This document shows, piece after piece, positions 11,644 through 23,732 of a stretch of DNA of 64,000 bases. Origin of the DNA: an uncultured Candidatus Saccharibacteria bacterium (lineage in GTDB: Bacteria; Patescibacteriota; Minisyncoccia; Phycocordibacterales; JAACPR01); contig CAYOAT010000001.1 of the NCBI GenBank assembly GCA_964402215.1, forward strand, positions 70,703-134,702, given 5' to 3'. Under the pieces are notes generated by a model that searched no databases, was not told the DNA's origin, and worked only from the letters and a program-made list of their open reading frames with translations. A program made the translations under genes and the position numbers. The first letter of the stretch is position 1. Every line of letters begins with the position of its first letter.

Positions 11644-13590
11644 CTATTGAACCACATCTCCGTGTTTATCGAAAGCATTTCTACCAACAAGTAATGTATT
11701 CGTTACCTCTCCAGGTAATTCAATTTTTGTCTTTGCAAAGGCATCAAAAGAAGAAACGGAAATACTATTAACCAGATCTGGAGTATAACCAATTTGACTT
11801 ATACTTGGGCGAATTTTTAATTGAAAACTGACTGAACGGCTAGGAGCACTATGGCCAGTTCCGGCACTAATTCTTCCAGGACTCCAAATTATTCTTCGCG
11901 AGGTTGAATCGTAGGTAATATCTTCACTTATTGGATAAACATTTCCTGTCCACGTTACATATGTTGGCAGCAGCCCAATTACCTTTGTAGTTTCTACGTC
12001 ATTTGTACTATTTAAAATTTCCCAAGTTGCCGTGTACAAAGTTTCTTGTTCAACCTTTGGCGGAACAGGTCCGGAATCAATGAAGCTAGCGGTTTTTGTA
12101 TACTGAGAATTATATGAAGTTTTTGAGTCAAAAACCAAATCAGAAAGTATTTTTATAGTTACAAAATCTCTCTCTTCTATTTTTTCGTCGACTCCCGATT
12201 CTGAAGTTCTAAGACCAGTTACAATTGCAGATATTCTAACTTCCGGATTAACTAAACTTTTATTATTTACAGATAAATCATATGTTTCTAACTTATCTGA
12301 AATCGGGATACTGCTTCTAGGAGGAACAGAAGATAATTTTTCTAGGGTATTCTTTGTGTATGAAATCAAGTTTGTATATGAATCATAAAATCCACTTGTT
12401 ACTAAAATCTTACCCTTATCCAAGACTTTCCCTTCTAGATATAGTTTAGCCTCAACATCACGCACGACATTATTAGTATTATTAGAAAACGTTAGGATGT
12501 AATTTATTTCATCTCCACTCTCTACGACCGCGATCGGCTCACTTGAACCATTTATAGCCAAATCAAGACCAATAAATGGTTTTTCAAGCAAAACAACGTG
12601 TCTGACATTGGTAAGGGTTATGTCAATTTCCTCTTTATTATCAGATTTTGGTGTCCCAGCCGAAAATTTAAAAGCCCTCTCCTCATTATCTTGGGCTTGA
12701 AGTTGGCCCGATATTTTTATGTTTTTGACATCGGTCGGATTAAATTCACCAAATTCCCAAACATTATTTCCATAAGTTGGCGCGATATTTGCCTTCTCAT
12801 ATTTGAAACCAAAAGGATATTCAGCGATAACTAGCAAATTATTTATTGGTCTTTCGGAATTTGATTTGATTTCCAAATTAAAATCCATGGTTTGGCCAGA
12901 AGAGATTTTATCTAGCGCAGTAACAAGTATCTGTACTGGCGAAACACTAAGTGTGATTGTAAAAGTTTTTGTTTTACTCAACAATACGACTGACCCGGGT
13001 GTTCGATACTCGACATTTACATCTACAGATTTTGTCTCTCCATTTTCACCAAAAAAAGCCATATCAAGAGTTTTCTTTATGACAGACCCAGCTGATAGAT
13101 CACCAATTTCGATGCGACCTCGTCTTAAGTCATTCTTTAAGTCACTAGATTTTGTTCCTTCAGGATATTCAATAGCCAAATTAGTTGACTCCATATTTAT
13201 TTGACTATTGTTTTGAACAACAACATCTATAGACAACTGATCCCCCCCACCGACAGAAACCGGACCAACTATATCAATATTAATATCGTCGGTTGAAATT
13301 ATTTGTTCTCCCCCTATAAACATATAAGCTGCAAATCCTAAAGAACCGAGGAAAAATAATATTGCGACAACCAAGACTGTCCAAAATATTCCAGTTTTTT
13401 GTTTGTTAATTGGAAAAGATTCAGAAGACGAGTTATCTAGTAAATCCCCATCCTTCCAATCTGGCATTTCTTCATATTTTTTCACATCGAATTCAGAACG
13501 TTCATCTGTATCAAAAGACTGATTCTTTGAAAACAATTTATTTTCAAGTTTTTCTATTCGATTGGTTTCTTTTTTATCAAAGTAATTCAT
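11644..13590 (-). CDS. hypothetical large surface/secreted protein with single N-proximal TM
   Basis: 648 aa; acidic cytoplasmic N-terminus, one TM, long beta-rich extracytoplasmic region; no catalytic motif seen. Confidence 0.5.
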   Translation of the reverse strand: MNYFDKKETNRIEKLENKLFSKNQSFDTDERSEFDVKKYEEMPDWKDGDLLDNSSSESFPINKQKTGIFWTVLVVAILFFLGSLGFAAYMFIGGEQIISTDDINIDIVGPVSVGGGDQLSIDVVVQNNSQINMESTNLAIEYPEGTKSSDLKNDLRRGRIEIGDLSAGSVIKKTLDMAFFGENGETKSVDVNVEYRTPGSVVLLSKTKTFTITLSVSPVQILVTALDKISSGQTMDFNLEIKSNSERPINNLLVIAEYPFGFKYEKANIAPTYGNNVWEFGEFNPTDVKNIKISGQLQAQDNEERAFKFSAGTPKSDNKEEIDITLTNVRHVVLLEKPFIGLDLAINGSSEPIAVVESGDEINYILTFSNNTNNVVRDVEAKLYLEGKVLDKGKILVTSGFYDSYTNLISYTKNTLEKLSSVPPRSSIPISDKLETYDLSVNNKSLVNPEVRISAIVTGLRTSESGVDEKIEERDFVTIKILSDLVFDSKTSYNSQYTKTASFIDSGPVPPKVEQETLYTATWEILNSTNDVETTKVIGLLPTYVTWTGNVYPISEDITYDSTSRRIIWSPGRISAGTGHSAPSRSVSFQLKIRPSISQIGYTPDLVNSISVSSFDAFAKTKIELPGEVTNTLLVGRNAFDKHGDVVQ

Positions 13591-13610
13591 TCAAAATAAT
13601 TATAACACTA

Positions 13611-14216
13611 TTATAAATGACTATCGCGAATTGCCCTATTTATTTCCACAATCATGCCTTTTTGAGAAAAAACAATATTTTGGCTTAACTTTAAAATTAA
13701 TTCAAAATCTAGCTGATTTTTTAAATAAAATTCTATATCTTTAGTCTGTTTCAAGTATCCTAAATGATACAAAATAGCGGCAGAAAAAATTGCTTCGAAA
13801 GATAATATATCATTTTGATTATTAAATTTATCCTGATTTTCTAAAGAAAAATCTAAAAAACGTGCCGTTTCGGTATAGATTACTTCATCCTTTACTTCGC
13901 CGGCAATTAGACGATTAATCAAACTAAATACTCTACAAACAGATTCACGAAGATCCTCATTAACCATATCGGTATAAAAGTTTTTTACAAAACCTGCGTT
14001 AACCAATCTCCAACCTGTGCGGCCAGAAACTAATGCAACATTGACTAGAGAAAAATCCTGAATAGATTGTCTCATCTTGGACTCCATTTTTCTGGCGCCC
14101 TGAGCAGTTGCCCTAATAACTCCGAATTCTTCAGTTAGCAAAATAATACTGCTGTCTGCTTCCCTTGTTTGGAAACTTTTCAAAACAAAAGCTTTTGTTC
14201 TGTGAATATGATGCAT
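13611..14216 (-). CDS. recO: DNA repair protein RecO
   Basis: N-terminal OB-fold pattern (AFVLKS...GARKMESKMRQ) typical of RecO. Confidence 0.65.
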   Translation of the reverse strand: MHHIHRTKAFVLKSFQTREADSSIILLTEEFGVIRATAQGARKMESKMRQSIQDFSLVNVALVSGRTGWRLVNAGFVKNFYTDMVNEDLRESVCRVFSLINRLIAGEVKDEVIYTETARFLDFSLENQDKFNNQNDILSFEAIFSAAILYHLGYLKQTKDIEFYLKNQLDFELILKLSQNIVFSQKGMIVEINRAIRDSHL

Positions 14217-14232
14217 TAACTAACTTTTTAAT

Positions 14233-17200
14233 TTAATTAATCGAGATTTTAAATGAAAATCCTTCCGTCTCAAGAATGGCCCCATCATTTCTCTCAATGG
14301 TTATTTTTGTCGCCCGCACAGATTCCGAAATTTGATTTGAAAATTTATTAATAAATTCAACACCACGTCCGCCAGTTTCAACTGATAAAATAATTTTATC
14401 ATTTGGAACAAGTTTCTTTTCTTTCCTCAAGCTTTGAATAAATCGAACTAACTCGCGCAGAGTCCCTTCTTGTTTTAATTCCGCATCAATTACAGTATCA
14501 AGTTGAACTTTTTGTTCTCCTAATGTTTGGTCGGAAATAATTTCCTTAACATTAACTTCGTCTTTTATAAGTTCAATTAAATCTGCACTGATTTCAGTTG
14601 AGGGAATATTTATTTTTAGAGTTCGTAGGGGTTGTCTAACTTTAATTCCAAACTTATCCCGTTCTAGTAAAGAAATACTGACGAGATTTCTAACGTTCGC
14701 CATTTCACCTAGAAGTTTTTGATCAACATCTTTTATTTCTGGCCAAGATTCTAAATGAACGCTGCGATTTTGGTCAGTAAAATTTATATTATTTATTCTT
14801 TGATAAATCATTTCAGCGGTAAAAGGCATAAATGGAGCCATTATTTTAGCGAATTCGTTCAAAACATAAAATGTCGTCTGAATTGCAAATTCGCGATCTT
14901 CGCTATTTTCGTTTTTAAATCGGTCACGTGAACGACGAACATACCAAGTCGATAAATCATCAACAAAATCAAAGAAAGTTCGACACGCAGTATTTAACTC
15001 GTAAATTTCCATTGCATCTGTTGTCTCTTTTAGAACTTGATTTAATCTTGCAATAATCCATTTATCAAGAACATTTGACGACTCAGTTTTTGTTACAGGC
15101 GCCACGGAATTTTGATCCTTGTACAAATCGTAAAACGCAACAACATTTAACAGCCGTGAAATAATTTTTTTGTAAACTTCATCAACCCCCTTTTCAGAAA
15201 AACTAAGTGGTTCGGCCTGAACAATTCCAGAAGATAGCATGTAGTATCGCATTGGATCAGCGCCATATTTGTTGAAAATCAAACTTGGCTCTGGATAATT
15301 TTTCAATCTTTTCGACATTTTTTGTCCGTCTTCAGCCAAAACTAATCCATTCACCACAACATTTTTGTATGGGGCTTTTCCAAACAACGCGGTGTTCAAA
15401 GCGAGCAGTGTGTAAAACCAACCACGAGTCTGATCAAGTCCTTCTGCAATAAAATCTGCAGGAAATTTTTGACGTGTTTTAAACAATCCTGAAAAACCAA
15501 CAGCCGGTTCCATTGTTTTTTCAAAAGGATAATGAGGAACAGCAAATGGCATTGATCCAGAATCAAACCAAGTATCAAAAACTTCCGGAATTCTCTTCAT
15601 TAGCTTTCCGTTTTTAGTAAAAGTAATTTCATCAATATATGGACGATGAAGATCCAAAATATATTCGTCATCGTGAGGAATCGGAGCAAAGTTAAATTCA
15701 GTAACACTGCCCGTTGGGACAAGATCAGAAGATTCTTCTTTTATTTTTGCAGCGGCTTTGTTATCAAGACCCTCGTTTAGTGACATTAACATCCATATTG
15801 GATATTCATGGCTTACAACAAGGATATTTTTGTCACTATGTTTTTTATTTATCTCATAAATAAAATCACCGATTCTTTTTTTAATATCAGTTAAATTTTC
15901 ACCGCCTTCAGGTTTTTCATAAAACTTATCTAGAAAACTTTTATAAGTTAGATCATACTCTTCAAAAGCTTTTCCATTCAAAATTCCAGACTGTGTTTCT
16001 TTTAATCTATCATCAATAATTAATTTATCAGCCGAAATATTTAATTCCTTCATCAAAATATCAGCAGTCTCACGTGTTCGAATGAGCGGTGAACAATAAA
16101 CAAAATCAATTTCCTTACCCACAAATTTACTTGCAGCATCTAGAGCTTGTTTTTTTCCTTTTTCGGTTAAGTGAACAGGTTTAGAATTATCAGAATTTAA
16201 AAAGCGACCGACATTATGATCTGCCTCACCGTGTCGCATCAAATAAAATGTATTTGAACTTTTTGTTCTATCTTTTATATCTTTGATTGAACCTAAAAAT
16301 TCTATTTCAGTTGAATCTTCTGATTTCCAAATTGGCATTGGCGTTCCCCAATAACGAGATCTAGAAACTCCCCAATCTTTTACATTTTCTAGCCAATTTC
16401 CAAAACGTTTTTCTCCAATATTTTGTGGAACCCAATGAACTTTCTTGTTCAGGGCAACCATTTTTTGATTATAATTTGTAACTTTTATAAACCAAGAAGA
16501 AAGTGCAAAATTCAAAAGCGGCGCATCTGTTCTCCAACAATGAGGATACGAGTGCACAATTTTTTCCTTTGCAAAAAGAGTTCCATCAGCCGCTAGCCTT
16601 TTAATAACTAAAACGTCAGTTGCAGTTGGGTCTTCTTTGGGCTTTGCCTGTAAACCGGCAAATCCTGTAATTTCTGGCTTTATAGAGCCATCAATATTTA
16701 CGTGTTGTACAAATGGTAATTTATTTTTTTGACCAAGAACAAGGTCATCTTCACCAAATCCTGGGGCAATGTGTACAATTCCCGTGCCGTCTTCAGTTGT
16801 AACGAAACTGCCTGAATATATTTTCCAACCGTTTTCACGATTTAGTAAATCAGTTTTATTTGAATAATAATCAAATAATGGACGATATTTTTTACCAACA
16901 AGATCACTTCCATTTATTGTTTCAATCTCTTCAAAACTTTTATCTTTCAAAGTCGATGCCAATCTACTTTTCGCCAAAATCAAAATATCATTTTCAACTT
17001 TTACTTTTACATATTCAATATTTTCACCGACTGCCAAGGCAACATTACCGAAAAGCGTCCAAGGTGTGGTCGTCCAAGCTAACAAATAAGTATTTTCCTC
17101 TCCTTCCAAAGCAAATTTTACATAAACCGAAATATCGGTGATATCTTTGTAACCGGAATTTACTTCAAAGTTTGAAAGGGGCGTTTCAAGTAGCGGAGAA

Positions 17201-17742
17201 ATCTGCATCACTTTAAAATCTTCATAAACCAAACCTTTTTTCTGTAATTCACTAAAAGCCCACCAAACCGATTCCATAAAATTAGAAGACATGGTGGTGT
17301 ATTGATTTTCCATGTCAATAAAACGGCCGGTTCTTGGAACAATTTCTTTCCACTCTCTATCATATCGAAACACACTATCCTTTGCGGCTTTACTAAAAGC
17401 TTTTATGCCAAAATTCTCGATATCTTTTTTTGTTCGAAGATTATTTTCTTCTTGAACCAATTTTTCAATTGGCAAACCATGACAATCCCATCCCCATCTG
17501 CGGTCAACGTGATACCCGCGCATCGTCTCATATCTTGGAATAACATCTTTCATTGTTCCAGCCAAAATATGCCCATAATGAGGAAGTCCTGTGGCAAAAG
17601 GAGGGCCGTCGTAAAAAACATAATCACCTTTTGGTGAAGATTTCGCCAAGGTCTTTTCAAAAATTTTATTTTCTTTCCAGAAATTTAAAACCTTCTCTTC
17701 TTCTAAAGCAAACGGGCTTTTATTTGTATCGTCATTATTCAT
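14233..17742 (-). CDS. ileS: isoleucyl-tRNA synthetase with an inserted histidine-phosphatase (PGAM-like) domain
   Basis: HYGH (HIGH) and KMSKR motifs, CP1 editing domain; ~190-aa insert with LMRHGEADHN and VVSHE motifs between WGTPMPIW and WFDSGS. Confidence 0.95.
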   Translation of the reverse strand: MNNDDTNKSPFALEEEKVLNFWKENKIFEKTLAKSSPKGDYVFYDGPPFATGLPHYGHILAGTMKDVIPRYETMRGYHVDRRWGWDCHGLPIEKLVQEENNLRTKKDIENFGIKAFSKAAKDSVFRYDREWKEIVPRTGRFIDMENQYTTMSSNFMESVWWAFSELQKKGLVYEDFKVMQISPLLETPLSNFEVNSGYKDITDISVYVKFALEGEENTYLLAWTTTPWTLFGNVALAVGENIEYVKVKVENDILILAKSRLASTLKDKSFEEIETINGSDLVGKKYRPLFDYYSNKTDLLNRENGWKIYSGSFVTTEDGTGIVHIAPGFGEDDLVLGQKNKLPFVQHVNIDGSIKPEITGFAGLQAKPKEDPTATDVLVIKRLAADGTLFAKEKIVHSYPHCWRTDAPLLNFALSSWFIKVTNYNQKMVALNKKVHWVPQNIGEKRFGNWLENVKDWGVSRSRYWGTPMPIWKSEDSTEIEFLGSIKDIKDRTKSSNTFYLMRHGEADHNVGRFLNSDNSKPVHLTEKGKKQALDAASKFVGKEIDFVYCSPLIRTRETADILMKELNISADKLIIDDRLKETQSGILNGKAFEEYDLTYKSFLDKFYEKPEGGENLTDIKKRIGDFIYEINKKHSDKNILVVSHEYPIWMLMSLNEGLDNKAAAKIKEESSDLVPTGSVTEFNFAPIPHDDEYILDLHRPYIDEITFTKNGKLMKRIPEVFDTWFDSGSMPFAVPHYPFEKTMEPAVGFSGLFKTRQKFPADFIAEGLDQTRGWFYTLLALNTALFGKAPYKNVVVNGLVLAEDGQKMSKRLKNYPEPSLIFNKYGADPMRYYMLSSGIVQAEPLSFSEKGVDEVYKKIISRLLNVVAFYDLYKDQNSVAPVTKTESSNVLDKWIIARLNQVLKETTDAMEIYELNTACRTFFDFVDDLSTWYVRRSRDRFKNENSEDREFAIQTTFYVLNEFAKIMAPFMPFTAEMIYQRINNINFTDQNRSVHLESWPEIKDVDQKLLGEMANVRNLVSISLLERDKFGIKVRQPLRTLKINIPSTEISADLIELIKDEVNVKEIISDQTLGEQKVQLDTVIDAELKQEGTLRELVRFIQSLRKEKKLVPNDKIILSVETGGRGVEFINKFSNQISESVRATKITIERNDGAILETEGFSFKISIN
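15673..16254 (-). other. histidine phosphatase (branch 1, PGAM/SixA-like) domain embedded in IleRS
   Basis: RHGE catalytic motif, VYCSPLIRTRETA, second-His motif SHE; residues ~497-690 of IleS. Confidence 0.8.
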
Positions 17743-17770
17743 AAATTTTTAGTAAATATAAAGATATCTT

Positions 17771-17804
17771 ATCACAAAATCAAGCTTAAAAACGCTTGAT
17801 TTTG
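17771..17804 (-). terminator. hairpin terminator downstream of argS
   Basis: ATCAAGC-ttaaaaac-GCTTGAT stem-loop with T-rich tail on minus strand. Confidence 0.4.
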
Positions 17805-17829
17805 GCTTGAAATAAACTTTTAATAAAAT

Positions 17830-19566
17830 CTACATTCGACTAGGAACCTTTATACCTAACACTTTTAGACCGTTTTGAATAACATGCATTACGGCCTTTG
17901 TTATAGCCACCTTATAAGCTTCATTTGGCCCACCATCAAGAATCATATTTTGTGCGTAGAATGAATTAAATTCACTACAAATCTTTGTCAGCAACGTTGT
18001 AATGTCTTGTGGTGAAAGTCCGCCTGAATAAGCATTTTTAACTTCCTCTGGAAAACGATAAAGTAATTTTTCAATATTTGTCGTTTGCCAGCCTTCGGGT
18101 TCAGTAGTTTCAACAAATTCTATCTCCTTTTCTTTTGCCGAATCAATAATAGATTTTGTTCGAACATATGTGTATTGCAAATATGGGCCAGAGTCCCCTT
18201 CAAAAGAAACCGCGGCGTCTTTATCAAAAATAATATCGCGTCCGATTGCTTGTTTTAATATTGAATATTTTAAAGCGCCCACAGAAATAATTGTTTTTAC
18301 ATCTGCAGCATCTTGCTCTCCAAAATTTCTGTCTTTAATTTTTTCTGCGACAGTTTCTTCTATTTCTTGTAGTAAAGAATCACCAGTTATGACATTTCCC
18401 TTTCTCGACGACATCTTGCCTTCGGCAAAACGCATCATGCCGTGTGTAATATGCAAAGTTTTTGAGGAAATTTCTGGTCGAAGTTTTTTTAGTGCAGCCA
18501 AAATTACTTTGTAATATTCTTTTTGTTCACTGGCCGTAACAATTATTGAAGCATCGAACTTTCCAAATTTTTTCTGCAAAACATCCTCTTTGTAATATGC
18601 AAGACCAATATCTTTTGCTTCATAAGCTGGCAAACCAGCAGATGTGATAAAAACTCGCGTGTGCAAACCGTCTTTTTCTCCGTGATAAACAATAGCACCG
18701 TCACTTAATTCAAAAACATTAGGAATATTTGTTCTAACAATTTCACTTCCCGACTTTGCCATTTCATGTTCAAAAATTAATTGAGCGAAAGTTGAACCCA
18801 ATTTTTCGTACATATCATTGAAATGCCACAAACTCCATTCGCGACCTTTGTCGTACAAAGCTTTTATTTCAGGATCATCGTTCTGTTTTTGTTCATCAAA
18901 AAGATAATAAACTTTTTTATTTATTTCATTTATTTCTGCTTTAGCAGTTTCGTCTTCCTCATATTTACTTGCACCAAAGGCATAGACTTTTCCCAAATAA
19001 TCAGTTTTTTCAACAATTGTTGCAGAATCTTTTGGCATTTCGGAAATATTTTGTTTTATTCCCCACAAAGCTTTTGCCACATGCAAACCAACATCACCCT
19101 GGTAACAAACGCGAGTTACAGTTGCTCCATTCCACTCCAAAATTCTTGCAATTGATTCGCCGATAGAATTAGACATTAAATGCCCGATATGAAGAGGTTT
19201 GAACGGATTTGGATCTGTAAATTCAACAATAATATTTTTTCCGGCCAAATCTTTGTTACGACCATAATGTATTTCGCCATTCAAAACTTGTTGAACTGAC
19301 TTCTTGAAAAATGATCGACTTAAGAAAAAATTAATAAACCCTGGACCAGCTATTTCGATTTTTTCTATCTCCTCATTTTTTGATTCATTTAATTTTGCCA
19401 AAATCTCTTCTGCAATTTGTCGTGGATTGCCCTTATTTTTTTGAGCCAAAATTAGTGCGACGTTTGTAGAATAATCTCCGAACTTCAAATCTGCTGGATG
19501 TTCAACGACAAAATCAACTTTTTCAGTTAAAGCTTTTTCAATTAATTGTTTTATCGTATTTTTCAT
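17830..19566 (-). CDS. argS: arginyl-tRNA synthetase
   Basis: class I HIGH region PLHIGHLMS and ArgRS domains; start taken at internal Met (MKNTIKQL) 4 nt after dut stop. Confidence 0.9.
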   Translation of the reverse strand: MKNTIKQLIEKALTEKVDFVVEHPADLKFGDYSTNVALILAQKNKGNPRQIAEEILAKLNESKNEEIEKIEIAGPGFINFFLSRSFFKKSVQQVLNGEIHYGRNKDLAGKNIIVEFTDPNPFKPLHIGHLMSNSIGESIARILEWNGATVTRVCYQGDVGLHVAKALWGIKQNISEMPKDSATIVEKTDYLGKVYAFGASKYEEDETAKAEINEINKKVYYLFDEQKQNDDPEIKALYDKGREWSLWHFNDMYEKLGSTFAQLIFEHEMAKSGSEIVRTNIPNVFELSDGAIVYHGEKDGLHTRVFITSAGLPAYEAKDIGLAYYKEDVLQKKFGKFDASIIVTASEQKEYYKVILAALKKLRPEISSKTLHITHGMMRFAEGKMSSRKGNVITGDSLLQEIEETVAEKIKDRNFGEQDAADVKTIISVGALKYSILKQAIGRDIIFDKDAAVSFEGDSGPYLQYTYVRTKSIIDSAKEKEIEFVETTEPEGWQTTNIEKLLYRFPEEVKNAYSGGLSPQDITTLLTKICSEFNSFYAQNMILDGGPNEAYKVAITKAVMHVIQNGLKVLGIKVPSRM

Positions 19567-19570
19567 AATT

Positions 19571-19996
19571 TTATTTTCGTCCTGTTGAACCAAAACACCC
19601 TTCACCACGACTTGAATCATTTAATTCAGAAACTTCTTCAAGTTCTGGAATAACTACTGGATATATCACTAATTGTGCTATTTTATCACCTTTTTCAATC
19701 TTGTATGACTCGTTACCAAGATTAATTAAATTAACATTGTATTCACCACGATAACCAGGATCGAAAACTCCACCCATCGTATGTAATCCAGCCTTTTTGG
19801 GTAAACCACTTTTATCTTTTATGATTGCTGCAAAATTATTATCAAATTCCATTGCAAAACCTACCGGGAAAATCCTTCTTTCCATTGGTTTTAACTCATA
19901 ATCTTCAAGAGAATATAAATCCATACCAACGTCCCCTGGGTGCGCATATGTTGGTAATTTTGCGTCTTTATTCAACCTCTTGATCTTTATTTTCAT
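19571..19996 (-). CDS. dut: dUTP diphosphatase
   Basis: dUTPase motifs (AHPGDVGMDLYS). Confidence 0.9.
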   Translation of the reverse strand: MKIKIKRLNKDAKLPTYAHPGDVGMDLYSLEDYELKPMERRIFPVGFAMEFDNNFAAIIKDKSGLPKKAGLHTMGGVFDPGYRGEYNVNLINLGNESYKIEKGDKIAQLVIYPVVIPELEEVSELNDSSRGEGCFGSTGRK

Positions 19997-21966: not shown

Positions 21967-22665
21967 TCACGAAATAATAATGTTGCTTTTATGGCGATTA
22001 TTCAATTTTTCATAAATAATAATAACAATCGATATTAATGCCATTCCATAAATAAAATCTTCAATTGGGATACTTATTATATTAATGTTTGTCTTCAAAA
22101 AGGTATTGTAAATCACAACTGGTCTTGCTGTAAGATAAAGATTGAATATAAAAGTTAAAATATTTACAACTCCAAATATAAAAATCAAAAAATGTTTTTG
22201 TAAAAAAAGTTTTGTTTTTAATATTGAATCGACGACGATTACTAAAAAGAAAACTGATAAAACAACGCCAGAATATATTTTACCGATAAATAATGAGAAC
22301 GCAGCGCCTACTAAAATAAGTAACAGAAAAAGTGGATTCTTAAAAAATTTTATTTCTTTTATTTCAACAAAAAGTTTTTTATAGTTAACCCACAAAAACA
22401 AGCAAGCAAATGGTACCGAAATAAAAAATAAAACTTCCTCTATAGGAATCCTGCCGATCAAAAAACCGCTTATATATTTTTGATTAAAAGACCAAAAATA
22501 ATTTATTACTAGCTCATCCCAAATTACAAAAAAAATAAAAGCGCAAAGAATTGATAAAAACATTGGTTTTCGATTTAATTCTTTTGCTCTCTCGGGCAGG
22601 AACAGTAAGGCCAATATTGGTCCTAAAAAAACTATTATATTAAAAATAAAATATTCTATTTTCAT
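21967..22665 (-). CDS. polytopic membrane protein, tentative lycopene cyclase domain (CrtYcd-type, two repeats)
   Basis: two internal repeats each with PIEE/PIED..FF motif on TM helices; sits in a carotenoid operon. Confidence 0.4.
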   Translation of the reverse strand: MKIEYFIFNIIVFLGPILALLFLPERAKELNRKPMFLSILCAFIFFVIWDELVINYFWSFNQKYISGFLIGRIPIEEVLFFISVPFACLFLWVNYKKLFVEIKEIKFFKNPLFLLLILVGAAFSLFIGKIYSGVVLSVFFLVIVVDSILKTKLFLQKHFLIFIFGVVNILTFIFNLYLTARPVVIYNTFLKTNINIISIPIEDFIYGMALISIVIIIYEKLNNRHKSNIIIS

Positions 22666-23732
22666 GATTTTCTATTTGTTACATACACCAGCAATTCCAC
22701 TAATGAATTTTTGATATCTTCCCCTGTCGCCAGATTTTTTATTCTATTATTAGCTTTTTTTATATACTTTTCTTTGATTTTATCAATTTCTGTTTTGACT
22801 CCAAACTCTCTAAAAAGAGATCTGATTTTACCCAAATCATCCACACTTAAATTATCTTTTCCAAAAATACTGTCTAGAATTTTCTTTTTTGACTTTGGAA
22901 TTTTTTTATATAAGAAATATCGAATTAAATTTTTTGTATTTCTACTGATATCAATACCGGCTGTCTTGCCTATCTCTTTTTTTTCTCCAAATATACCAAT
23001 CTCATCATCAACTATTTGAAAAACAATGCCAATATCCTCACCAATTCTATCAAAGTCTGAGGTTACTTTCGTCGAAGAATCATTAAATAAAGAAGCCATC
23101 ACCAACGGCATTGAAAATGTGTACCTTGCTGTTTTATATAAATATATTTTTAATATGTTACTTGAATTTGGCTCTATATTTGAAGCACCAAAAAAAACAT
23201 CATCGATTTGACCTAACCCAGTCTGAGAATAGTCGTTCAATAGTTTTTTAATTATATGTTCTCCATTTTTTAAACCAGAAACAGCAGAGTTAAATAATTG
23301 AAAAGCCATAAAAAATGCCATATCACCAACAGAAATGGCTATCGATTTCGCTGTTTGCACTTCATTATCTTTAACGCTTTTTTTAATATCATTAATATAC
23401 TGTGCGTGAATTGATGGTTTGCCTCGGCGAAAAAGATCGTCGTCCATAATGTCGTCATGTATGAGAAGCGCGGAATGGGCAATTTCCATGGCTACAGCAA
23501 AATTAAGTAGTCTATCTTTATCTTGGAATCCGAGTCGCTCGGCTGTATAAACAAAAAGAGTACCCCTGATACTTTTACCCCTAGTTGCAAACTCCCCCAA
23601 TCTATCTATCGCTTTTCTCTGCGTCTCACCACAATAACTGTACTCATGTTTTTTATGAGAGATAAATTTTTTAATAGCCCGATCAATTTCTTTTTTAATC
23701 CTAGAAATTTGTTTTAAATACGACTCATCCAT
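22662..23732 (-). CDS. trans-polyprenyl diphosphate synthase (GGPP/FPP synthase family)
   Basis: first Asp-rich motif LIHDDIMDDD and second motif FQIVDDEIG. Confidence 0.85.
   Translation of the reverse strand: MDESYLKQISRIKKEIDRAIKKFISHKKHEYSYCGETQRKAIDRLGEFATRGKSIRGTLFVYTAERLGFQDKDRLLNFAVAMEIAHSALLIHDDIMDDDLFRRGKPSIHAQYINDIKKSVKDNEVQTAKSIAISVGDMAFFMAFQLFNSAVSGLKNGEHIIKKLLNDYSQTGLGQIDDVFFGASNIEPNSSNILKIYLYKTARYTFSMPLVMASLFNDSSTKVTSDFDRIGEDIGIVFQIVDDEIGIFGEKKEIGKTAGIDISRNTKNLIRYFLYKKIPKSKKKILDSIFGKDNLSVDDLGKIRSLFREFGVKTEIDKIKEKYIKKANNRIKNLATGEDIKNSLVELLVYVTNRKS

Follow-up and report, generated by a model that had tools for sequence, protein, structure and literature searches.

A predicted branch-1 histidine phosphatase nested within the isoleucyl-tRNA synthetase of Patescibacteria

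Introduction

Few enzymes have been studied as thoroughly as the aminoacyl-tRNA synthetases (aaRSs). That a synthetase may carry added domains is already a known theme, the extra domains usually revealing added functions such as editing, signalling or complex assembly. Here we describe a 64,000-nucleotide (nt) stretch of DNA, hereafter the window, from an uncultured Candidatus Saccharibacteria bacterium (GenBank assembly GCA_964402215.1, contig CAYOAT010000001.1, positions 70,703 to 134,702), in which the gene for isoleucyl-tRNA synthetase (IleRS), ileS, carries a predicted and complete branch-1 histidine phosphatase inside its coding sequence. We analysed the synthetase, the insert and their relatives in terms of sequence, predicted fold, distribution and conservation, and weighed what the insert may do.

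Results

The ileS locus and the synthetase

In the list of open reading frames (ORFs) of the window, ileS is a single, uninterrupted frame on the minus strand. In an NCBIfam profile search the full-length protein passes the ileS model TIGR00392 with 879.6 bits against a cut-off of 621.4, and the Pfam families found in it are tRNA-synt_1, His_Phos_1, Anticodon_1 (E=1e-32) and DUF5915, with the tRNA-synt_1 match broken into two by His_Phos_1. The class I hallmarks listed in the initial annotation, namely HYGH, the CP1 editing domain and KMSKR, were all recovered by a motif scan, with intact signatures at amino acid (aa) 55 (HYGH), aa 725 (WFDSG) and aa 808 (KMSKR), and intact editing motifs at aa 223 (WTTTPWT) and aa 319 (GTGIVH). 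The closest relatives in the PDB are type 2 enzymes: human 9w01, yeast 8wnd/7d5c, C. albicans 6ldk, P. megaterium IleRS2 8c8u and T. thermophilus 1ile. As judged by its sequence, the window protein is a complete type 2 (eukaryote-like) IleRS, and it is predicted to be active in charging. The features of the gene are as follows, all on the minus strand; the conservation counts refer to the 75-sequence family set described below.

14233..17742, minus: ileS gene, predicted type 2 IleRS with insert, 1169 aa (ORF, TIGR00392, PDB relatives)
17569..17580, minus: HIGH signature HYGH, aa 55-58, class I catalytic domain (motif and translation)
16540..17154, minus: CP1 editing domain, aa ~197-401, with WTTTPWT and GTGIVH (match to the isolated editing-domain structure 1wk8)
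16270..16365, minus: N-terminal half of CP3, aa 460-491, including the end of the CP2-3 linker SRSRYWG and WGTPMPIW (yeast alignment and yeast domain limits)
15661..16269, minus: inserted segment, aa 492-694, predicted histidine phosphatase domain with short linkers (alignment, insert-deleted query, AlphaFold2)
15739..16248, minus: Pfam His_Phos_1 (PF00300) match, aa 499-668 (E=3.5e-34, 118.6 bits)
16228..16236, minus: R503-H504-G505, RHG motif, H504 being the predicted phospho-accepting nucleophile (conserved 75/75)
16213..16215, minus: N510, predicted phosphate-pocket asparagine (conserved 75/75)
16078..16080, minus: R555 (SPLIRTRET), predicted second phosphate-pocket arginine (conserved 75/75)
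15997..15999, minus: E582, predicted general acid or proton donor (conserved 75/75)
15808..15810, minus: H645 (VVSHE), predicted second catalytic histidine (conserved 75/75)
15577..15660, minus: C-terminal half of CP3, aa 695-722, beginning ILDLHRPYID (alignment, yeast domain limits, translation)
15556..15570, minus: WFDSG block, aa 725-729, where the Rossmann fold resumes (motif and translation)
15307..15321, minus: KMSKS signature KMSKR, aa 808-812 (motif and translation)
14623..15066, minus: anticodon-binding domain (Anticodon_1, aa 893-1040), followed by the DUF5915 C-terminal domain (Pfam)

Boundaries and site of the insert

The initial annotation had proposed a complete histidine phosphatase inside IleRS, and this proposal held: the His_Phos_1 match in the full protein stands far above the Pfam gathering cut-off of 21.7 bits, with an intact active site. 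When the stretch assigned to the domain, 15673-16254 (aa 497-690), was searched alone it gave an equally strong match to this profile (E=8.4e-36), its ends being right to within 5 residues on either side of the insert as defined by alignment (aa 492-694), and the motifs LMRHGEADHN, VYCSPLIRTRETA and VVSHE are present in the translation as described. In phmmer alignments the query runs in register up to aa 491-494, corresponding to human residue 490 and yeast residue 493, and resumes at aa 695, corresponding to human 496 and yeast 497. About 200 residues therefore stand where the human and yeast enzymes have about five, in agreement with the earlier statement that canonical IleRSs carry only a short connector at this position.

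In yeast IleRS, CP3 comprises residues 459-526, and the tRNA 3' end and reveromycin are accommodated in a pocket lined by the preceding CP2-3 linker (453-ARDWNVSRNRYWG-465) (PMC7955072). The paper on the yeast complex describes no contact of tRNA with CP3 itself. Given the alignment and these yeast limits, the insertion point is a loop in the middle of CP3. A query from which the insert had been deleted matched ordinary IleRSs of animals, fungi, Chlamydiae, Firmicutes and Bacteroidota at 99-100% coverage and about 50% identity; these matches are fragments of ordinary IleRSs, few of them named, and come from eukaryotes and many phyla. The flanks, once joined in silico, thus align with ordinary IleRS over their whole length, as expected of a clean insertion of a domain. 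Type 2 IleRSs (yeast and human cytoplasmic, T. thermophilus, and bacterial IleRS2/MupA) have their full domain set in common with the window protein (Rossmann fold with HIGH and KMSKS, CP core, CP1 editing domain, CP2, CP3, anticodon-binding and C-terminal domains), and the identity of about 50% extends across the junction. They differ in having only some five residues at this CP3 site in place of an enzyme domain of about 200, and in their zinc-knuckle cysteines, which are lost here. In the window protein KSED and TKNG stand in place of the two cysteine pairs (CxxC ... CxC) of this CP3 knuckle (window 16300-16340 and 15600-15640; aa ~470-480 and ~705-715), and across the 75 family members both pairs are lost in 32 and both kept in 31.

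We found no intein/Hint or endonuclease domain in the 1169-aa protein with Pfam, the repeats flanking the insert are short and at chance level only, and the GC content of the insert (0.32) does not deviate from that of the rest of ileS (0.35); an intein or mobile-element insertion was rejected on these grounds. A perfect 12-nt inverted repeat (ATCAGAAGATTC / GAATCTTCTGAT) occurs at 15724-15735 and 16313-16324, roughly near the ends of the insert, and is probably due to chance in AT-rich coding sequence.

Fold and family placement

AlphaFold2 was run on a 334-aa region with a 20-sequence alignment and returned a compact, confident model, with a predicted local distance difference test score of 90-98 for the insert. 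The domain is predicted to fold independently of the synthetase and to sit on the outer CP3 loop. The best Foldseek matches in the PDB are PspA (4ij5/4ij6), PhoE (1h2e/1ebb), Rv2419c, the riboflavin-pathway histidine phosphatase 9mmh and CobC; target TM-scores of 0.70-0.76 and a probability of 1.00 were obtained for PspA, PhoE and others, with true mutases mostly lower. A sequence search of solved structures produced the same ranking (PspA at 6e-16 against E=5e-4 for the mutase 1fzt).

No curated NCBIfam functional cut-off is reached by the insert. The top-scoring model, dPGM_arch (NF038349), gave 97.9 bits against a cut-off of 225, followed by RNase H/acid phosphatase (NF005567; 88.4 against 326), CobC alpha-ribazole phosphatase (TIGR03162; 84.6 against 162.9), PspA phosphoserine phosphatase (NF045917; 80.8 against 350) and SixA phosphohistidine phosphatase (TIGR00249; 42.7 against 74.5, with only the N-terminal third aligned). 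The other mutase models scored lower still, with 29.4 against 81.7 for pgm_1 (TIGR01258) and at most 41 against more than 300 for the other gpmA models.

One explanation that bears on these scores is that the insert is the organism's cofactor-dependent phosphoglycerate mutase (dPGM), i.e., its glycolytic enzyme, fused to IleRS. The archaeal dPGM model has the top NCBIfam score, the fold is common to the insert and to dPGMs, and no second His_Phos gene lies within the 64-kb window. However, every mutase model stays far below its cut-off, solved mutases match worse than phosphatases by sequence and mostly also by TM-score, and at about 170-200 aa the domain has the size of a small phosphatase, without the longer C-terminal region of the mutase type. 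We therefore regard a glycolytic mutase as very improbable. The earlier label 'PGAM-like' stands at the level of the superfamily, while at the level of the family the mutase models are clearly missed. On sequence and predicted fold, the insert is best described as a member of the branch-1 histidine phosphatase superfamily with the full predicted catalytic set, belonging to the small-phosphatase part and not to the mutases, in what appears to be a so far uncharacterised subfamily. The small branch-1 phosphatases (B. stearothermophilus PhoE 1EBB/1H2E, H. thermophilus PspA 4IJ5, CobC and Rv2419c) have fold, size and catalytic set in common with it at 21-29% identity, but they are free-standing, whereas the insert is nested in another enzyme.

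Distribution among Patescibacteria

The insert with its flanks (334 aa) was used to search a large protein database, the results covering proteins of up to 585 aa (up to 385 aa for a 220-aa query), and returned dozens of fragments with both PF00133 and PF00300 at 32-50% identity, whose named sources are nearly all Patescibacteria, Paceibacterota or Nomurabacteria. Full-length proteins came from an exhaustive HMMER search over 1.84 billion cluster representatives (50% identity clusters), which gave 241 representatives at E<=1e-30. The best 150 of these all span the insert, nearly all in one stretch, and many are full-length, with 1110-1275 aa and the insert at ~430-790.

A scan of GTDB species representatives with a 6-sequence insert alignment found relatives of the insert in at least 494 genomes. 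The best 80 of them are all metagenome-assembled genomes of Patescibacteria, many with generic taxon labels; those with finer names are mostly of the Parcubacteria/Paceibacteria type (Nomura-, Campbell-, Wolfe-, Lloyd-, Taylor- and Zambryskibacteria, Minisyncoccia), and the nearest, RA.bin143, shares 77% of residues with the window protein in the insert and 80% in the IleRS body. The ORF holding the match was recovered at 74 of these 80 loci as a single uninterrupted frame, mostly ~1150-1250 aa long, with HxGH and KMSK found in 63 and WxDSG in 72 of the 74 ORFs. The gene order argS-ileS-recO-648-aa DUF11-like protein, the last probably a surface protein, is kept in essentially all loci with enough flank (48, 47 and 42 of the 80 loci, L005-L084; window 11644-19620).

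In two further loci (L001:4948-8622 and L004:4717-8982) IleRS is called as three pieces. All in-frame stops in it are TGA codons, and at the columns to which they align 9-11 of 11 references have glycine. Both genomes therefore use genetic code 25, of the Gracilibacteria/Absconditabacteria type, and code-25 lineages carry the insert too. The gene calls of L001/L004 split IleRS, Dus, DnaG and BipA.

The initial annotation had named resequencing of the frame as a check against an assembly chimera. Taken together with a frameshifted gene pair and a recent mobile or intein-like insertion, such an artefact has practically no probability left: the frame is uninterrupted in 74 of 80 independent genomes and in full-length representatives of 1110-1275 aa, argS-ileS-recO synteny is conserved, and the GC content, the lack of a Hint domain and the lack of meaningful repeats reported above point the same way. 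A chimera was rejected because the insert recurs in hundreds of independent genomes. The insertion is old and widespread in Patescibacteria.

Conservation of the active site

Conservation was assessed in the window protein and 74 orthologues of different species, 75 sequences in total. R503, H504, G505, N510, R555, E582 and H645 are each present in 75 of 75, as are T526, G529, S551, G586, E615 and R623, and the RHG and histidine residues are thus not degenerate, a concern raised at the outset. Mean pairwise identity is 0.48 for the insert and 0.57 for the IleRS body (860 residues), so that the insert is almost as well conserved as the essential body, and the distances of insert and body correlate (r=0.61, 1653 pairs). 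The invariant active site and this co-variation fit long co-inheritance under purifying selection, and the alignment shows the insert to be under apparently strong selection at every catalytic residue. Conservation is lowest in the cap region (aa 585-604) and in the last helix or loop (aa 665-684), and about 35 cap residues are missing in two homologues.

This conservation bears on the idea of a non-catalytic module, ligand-sensing or purely structural, that would modulate IleRS, e.g., by binding a phosphorylated metabolite. Inserted aaRS domains often serve regulation or binding, which speaks for it. Binding-only derivatives of this fold, however, usually lose the nucleophile or the proton donor, and here H504, E582 and the phosphate pocket are invariant throughout the set at about 48% identity, so we consider a non-catalytic role very unlikely. 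The isoelectric point (pI) of the insert is 5.6 in the window protein, with a family median of 6.4. Such acidic-to-neutral values are not those of an RNA binder, and a generic RNA-binding module was rejected on this basis.

Extra copies, other inserted domains and free-standing relatives

More than one copy of His_Phos_1 was found in seven of the 151 family proteins scanned (145 cluster representatives and six others). Tandem pairs occupy the CP3 site in P0258, P0206 and P0231, and P0262 has four copies. In P0157 and in the code-25 protein of L004 (aa 876-1049) the second copy lies directly before the anticodon-binding domain, and P0027 is grouped with these; the first copy of P0157 has RHA in place of RHG. 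The second copies are not close duplicates of the first. Unrelated domains are inserted as well: P0071 carries a serine hydrolase (PF06821) at aa 356-456, after the phosphatase, and P0204 carries a P-loop kinase-like domain at aa ~725-915, at a further site between WFESGSMPYA and FPADFIAEG. The latter falls just below the Pfam cut-offs for AAA_18/AAA_33 and far below those of NCBIfam, and its similarity to APS kinase, shikimate kinase and Pnkp1 is non-significant (E 0.02-0.06). These IleRSs seem to accumulate domains at several loops and, given that copy number (1-4), position and unrelated inserted domains all vary, precise placement with respect to the aminoacylation site does not seem to be critical.

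Free-standing relatives of 175-193 aa were found at 40-44% identity, each with a start and a stop codon of its own and without traces of IleRS; the enzyme can therefore function without IleRS. One (L085:3430-4011, P0373) follows argS, which is the slot of ileS in the clade of the window; its contig ends 165 nt later, and the ArgRS of this locus is only 31% identical to that of the window. A metagenome scan with P0373 returned only generic relatives at 23-35% identity. The second (L086:2127-2654) has RNase III on one side and a SpoU-type methyltransferase on the other, and the third (L087:1435-1971, in L087/L088) is flanked by an M23 peptidase and a YgjP-like gene. Neighbour-joining trees of free-standing and extra copies against the CP3 inserts are saturated, with a median of 1.5 substitutions per site, and place even PspA 'inside'.

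These variants bring in a further explanation, namely that the insert is a translation-coupled repair phosphatase acting on a macromolecule handled by IleRS, which would restore a chargeable tRNA or an active enzyme in place. In one form it would strip a 3'-phosphate, a 2',3'-cyclic phosphate or a pyrophosphate from the CCA end of tRNA, as left by nucleases or toxSAS-type toxins; in another it would remove a phosphate put on the synthetase by a HipA-like kinase. HipA phosphorylates GltX and HipT phosphorylates TrpS. In P0204 the kinase-like domain together with the phosphatase formally recalls RNA end-healing enzymes, although its similarity to kinases is non-significant (Pnkp1 E=0.06). The placing of free-standing relatives near RNase III and the SpoU methyltransferase, and directly after argS, would also suit repair, but each context was seen once and genes are tightly packed in these genomes. 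Extra copies at distant sites and in tandem fit poorly with a precisely aimed active site.

Other genes in the window

The architectures of the neighbouring ArgRS and class II synthetase are ordinary. As listed, the ArgRS ORF starts at 19620 and shares 50 nt (19571-19620) with the end of the dUTPase ORF upstream; the true start of ArgRS is probably an internal methionine (MKNTIKQ...) 18 codons downstream. At 21967-23732, downstream of the genes for SHMT and thymidylate kinase, a protein with a lycopene-cyclase domain (PF18916) adjoins a polyprenyl synthetase; genes of the isoprenoid/carotenoid type are unusual for a minimal Patescibacteria genome.

Discussion

We favour, with moderate confidence, the reading that the insert is an autonomous small-molecule phosphomonoesterase, like PhoE, PspA and CobC and not a mutase, which is carried by IleRS. 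On this reading, a complete branch-1 histidine phosphatase was inserted long ago into a solvent-exposed CP3 loop of a working type 2 IleRS. By the chemistry of the family, R503, N510, R555 and H645 would hold the phosphate of the substrate, H504 would attack it to form a phospho-histidine intermediate, and E582 would protonate the leaving group before water frees the phosphate. The synthetase would serve mainly as a stable, essential and abundantly expressed carrier in minimal genomes. We likewise infer that the insert is enzymatically active. This reading is ranked first because of the closest relatives of the domain, its charge, the existence of free-standing relatives and the loose copy number and position; the nearest solved structures, being small-molecule phosphatases, support it.

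Several points weigh against it. The domain lies below the cut-off of every curated functional family, and small phosphorylated metabolites as the substrate class are a guess. Retention in IleRS, in the same loop and through a very deep radiation, exceeds what would be expected of a random carrier. The base of CP3 adjoins the CP2-3 linker, which forms the lining of the tRNA A76 pocket. Of the three free-standing relatives, two stand beside translation or RNA genes (argS in L085; RNase III and SpoU in L086), and the low conservation of the cap, lowest in the domain, and its shortening in some homologues would fit a macromolecular substrate too.

The repair phosphatase set out above we rank second because of the strict and ancient association with IleRS, the position of the CP3 base near the A76 pocket and the two RNA or translation contexts. 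The association is stable, at one site in at least 494 species, CP3 is contiguous with the linker lining the A76 pocket, and a cap that varies or is shortened would give a bulky substrate access to the active site. Furthermore, the RNase H/acid phosphatase family is the second-best NCBIfam match. Against this, we know of no branch-1 histidine phosphatase that acts on RNA ends, the domain is not basic, and there is no evident reason why only tRNA-Ile or IleRS should need repair. One of the proposed substrates is a known toxin product, since pyrophosphorylation of the tRNA 3' end by toxSAS toxins, an established mechanism, blocks aminoacylation (PMC11559606). On balance repair is possible but unlikely. 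Its most elaborate version, in which the patescibacterial IleRS is a built-in repair platform that strips (pyro)phosphate from the tRNA 3' end or from the synthetase after attack by nucleases or by toxins that (pyro)phosphorylate tRNA or phosphorylate aaRSs, and to which some lineages add phosphatase copies, a kinase-like module or a serine hydrolase, is distinctly doubtful.

The initial annotation had suggested a moonlighting or regulatory activity on a nucleotide, a tRNA end or an alarmone-like product. Such a role is possible but not supported by the results. The acidic pI, the variable copy number and position and the free-standing relatives fit an autonomous small-molecule phosphatase at least as well.

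The suggestion that the fusion is new fared better. Full-text searches for IleRS or aaRS together with histidine phosphatase or phosphoglycerate mutase returned nothing relevant, a curated catalogue paper of aaRS domains does not list a phosphatase module, and NCBIfam has no model for a phosphatase-bearing IleRS. Public annotations read 'class I tRNA ligase family protein' or 'isoleucyl-tRNA synthetase'. The arrangement appears to be undescribed and unstudied. The co-occurrence of PF00133 and PF00300 can be seen in precomputed Pfam tables, and it is therefore not hidden.

Comparable systems are known. NF040702, 'ileS_w_GNAT', describes an IleRS with an N-acetyltransferase and is thus a curated precedent for an IleRS with an additional catalytic domain, but there the added domain is a GNAT and here a histidine phosphatase; the window protein scores 297.6 against its cut-off of 1999 and has no acetyltransferase match in Pfam. 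Natural fusions of branch-1 phosphatases include RNase H/acid phosphatase (NF005567, Rv2228c type), the partner of which is a nucleic-acid enzyme, and PFK-2/FBPase-2. These are end-to-end fusions with other partner enzymes, whereas the domain described here is nested in a loop. The CP1 editing domain of class Ia synthetases is likewise hydrolytic and nested within the Rossmann-fold catalytic domain. It is, however, universal in IleRS, ValRS and LeuRS and hydrolyses mischarged tRNA, while the phosphatase insert is lineage-specific, of unrelated fold and has no known link to aminoacylation.

Conclusions

A second, apparently active enzyme is nested in the catalytic body of an essential synthetase, and hundreds of species with minimal genomes, in a major and poorly understood bacterial radiation, have long retained it. 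CP3 and two further loops of IleRS tolerate the insertion of whole domains, which is useful for engineering. If the small-metabolite phosphatase is the true reading, reduced genomes would bundle housekeeping enzymes on essential carriers, and the insert would point to a missing metabolic step in Patescibacteria. If instead the substrate is a tRNA end or the synthetase, it would represent a new kind of translation quality control or toxin resistance, and, should the repair platform be true, this would be the first aaRS with an integrated counter-defence or end-healing activity.

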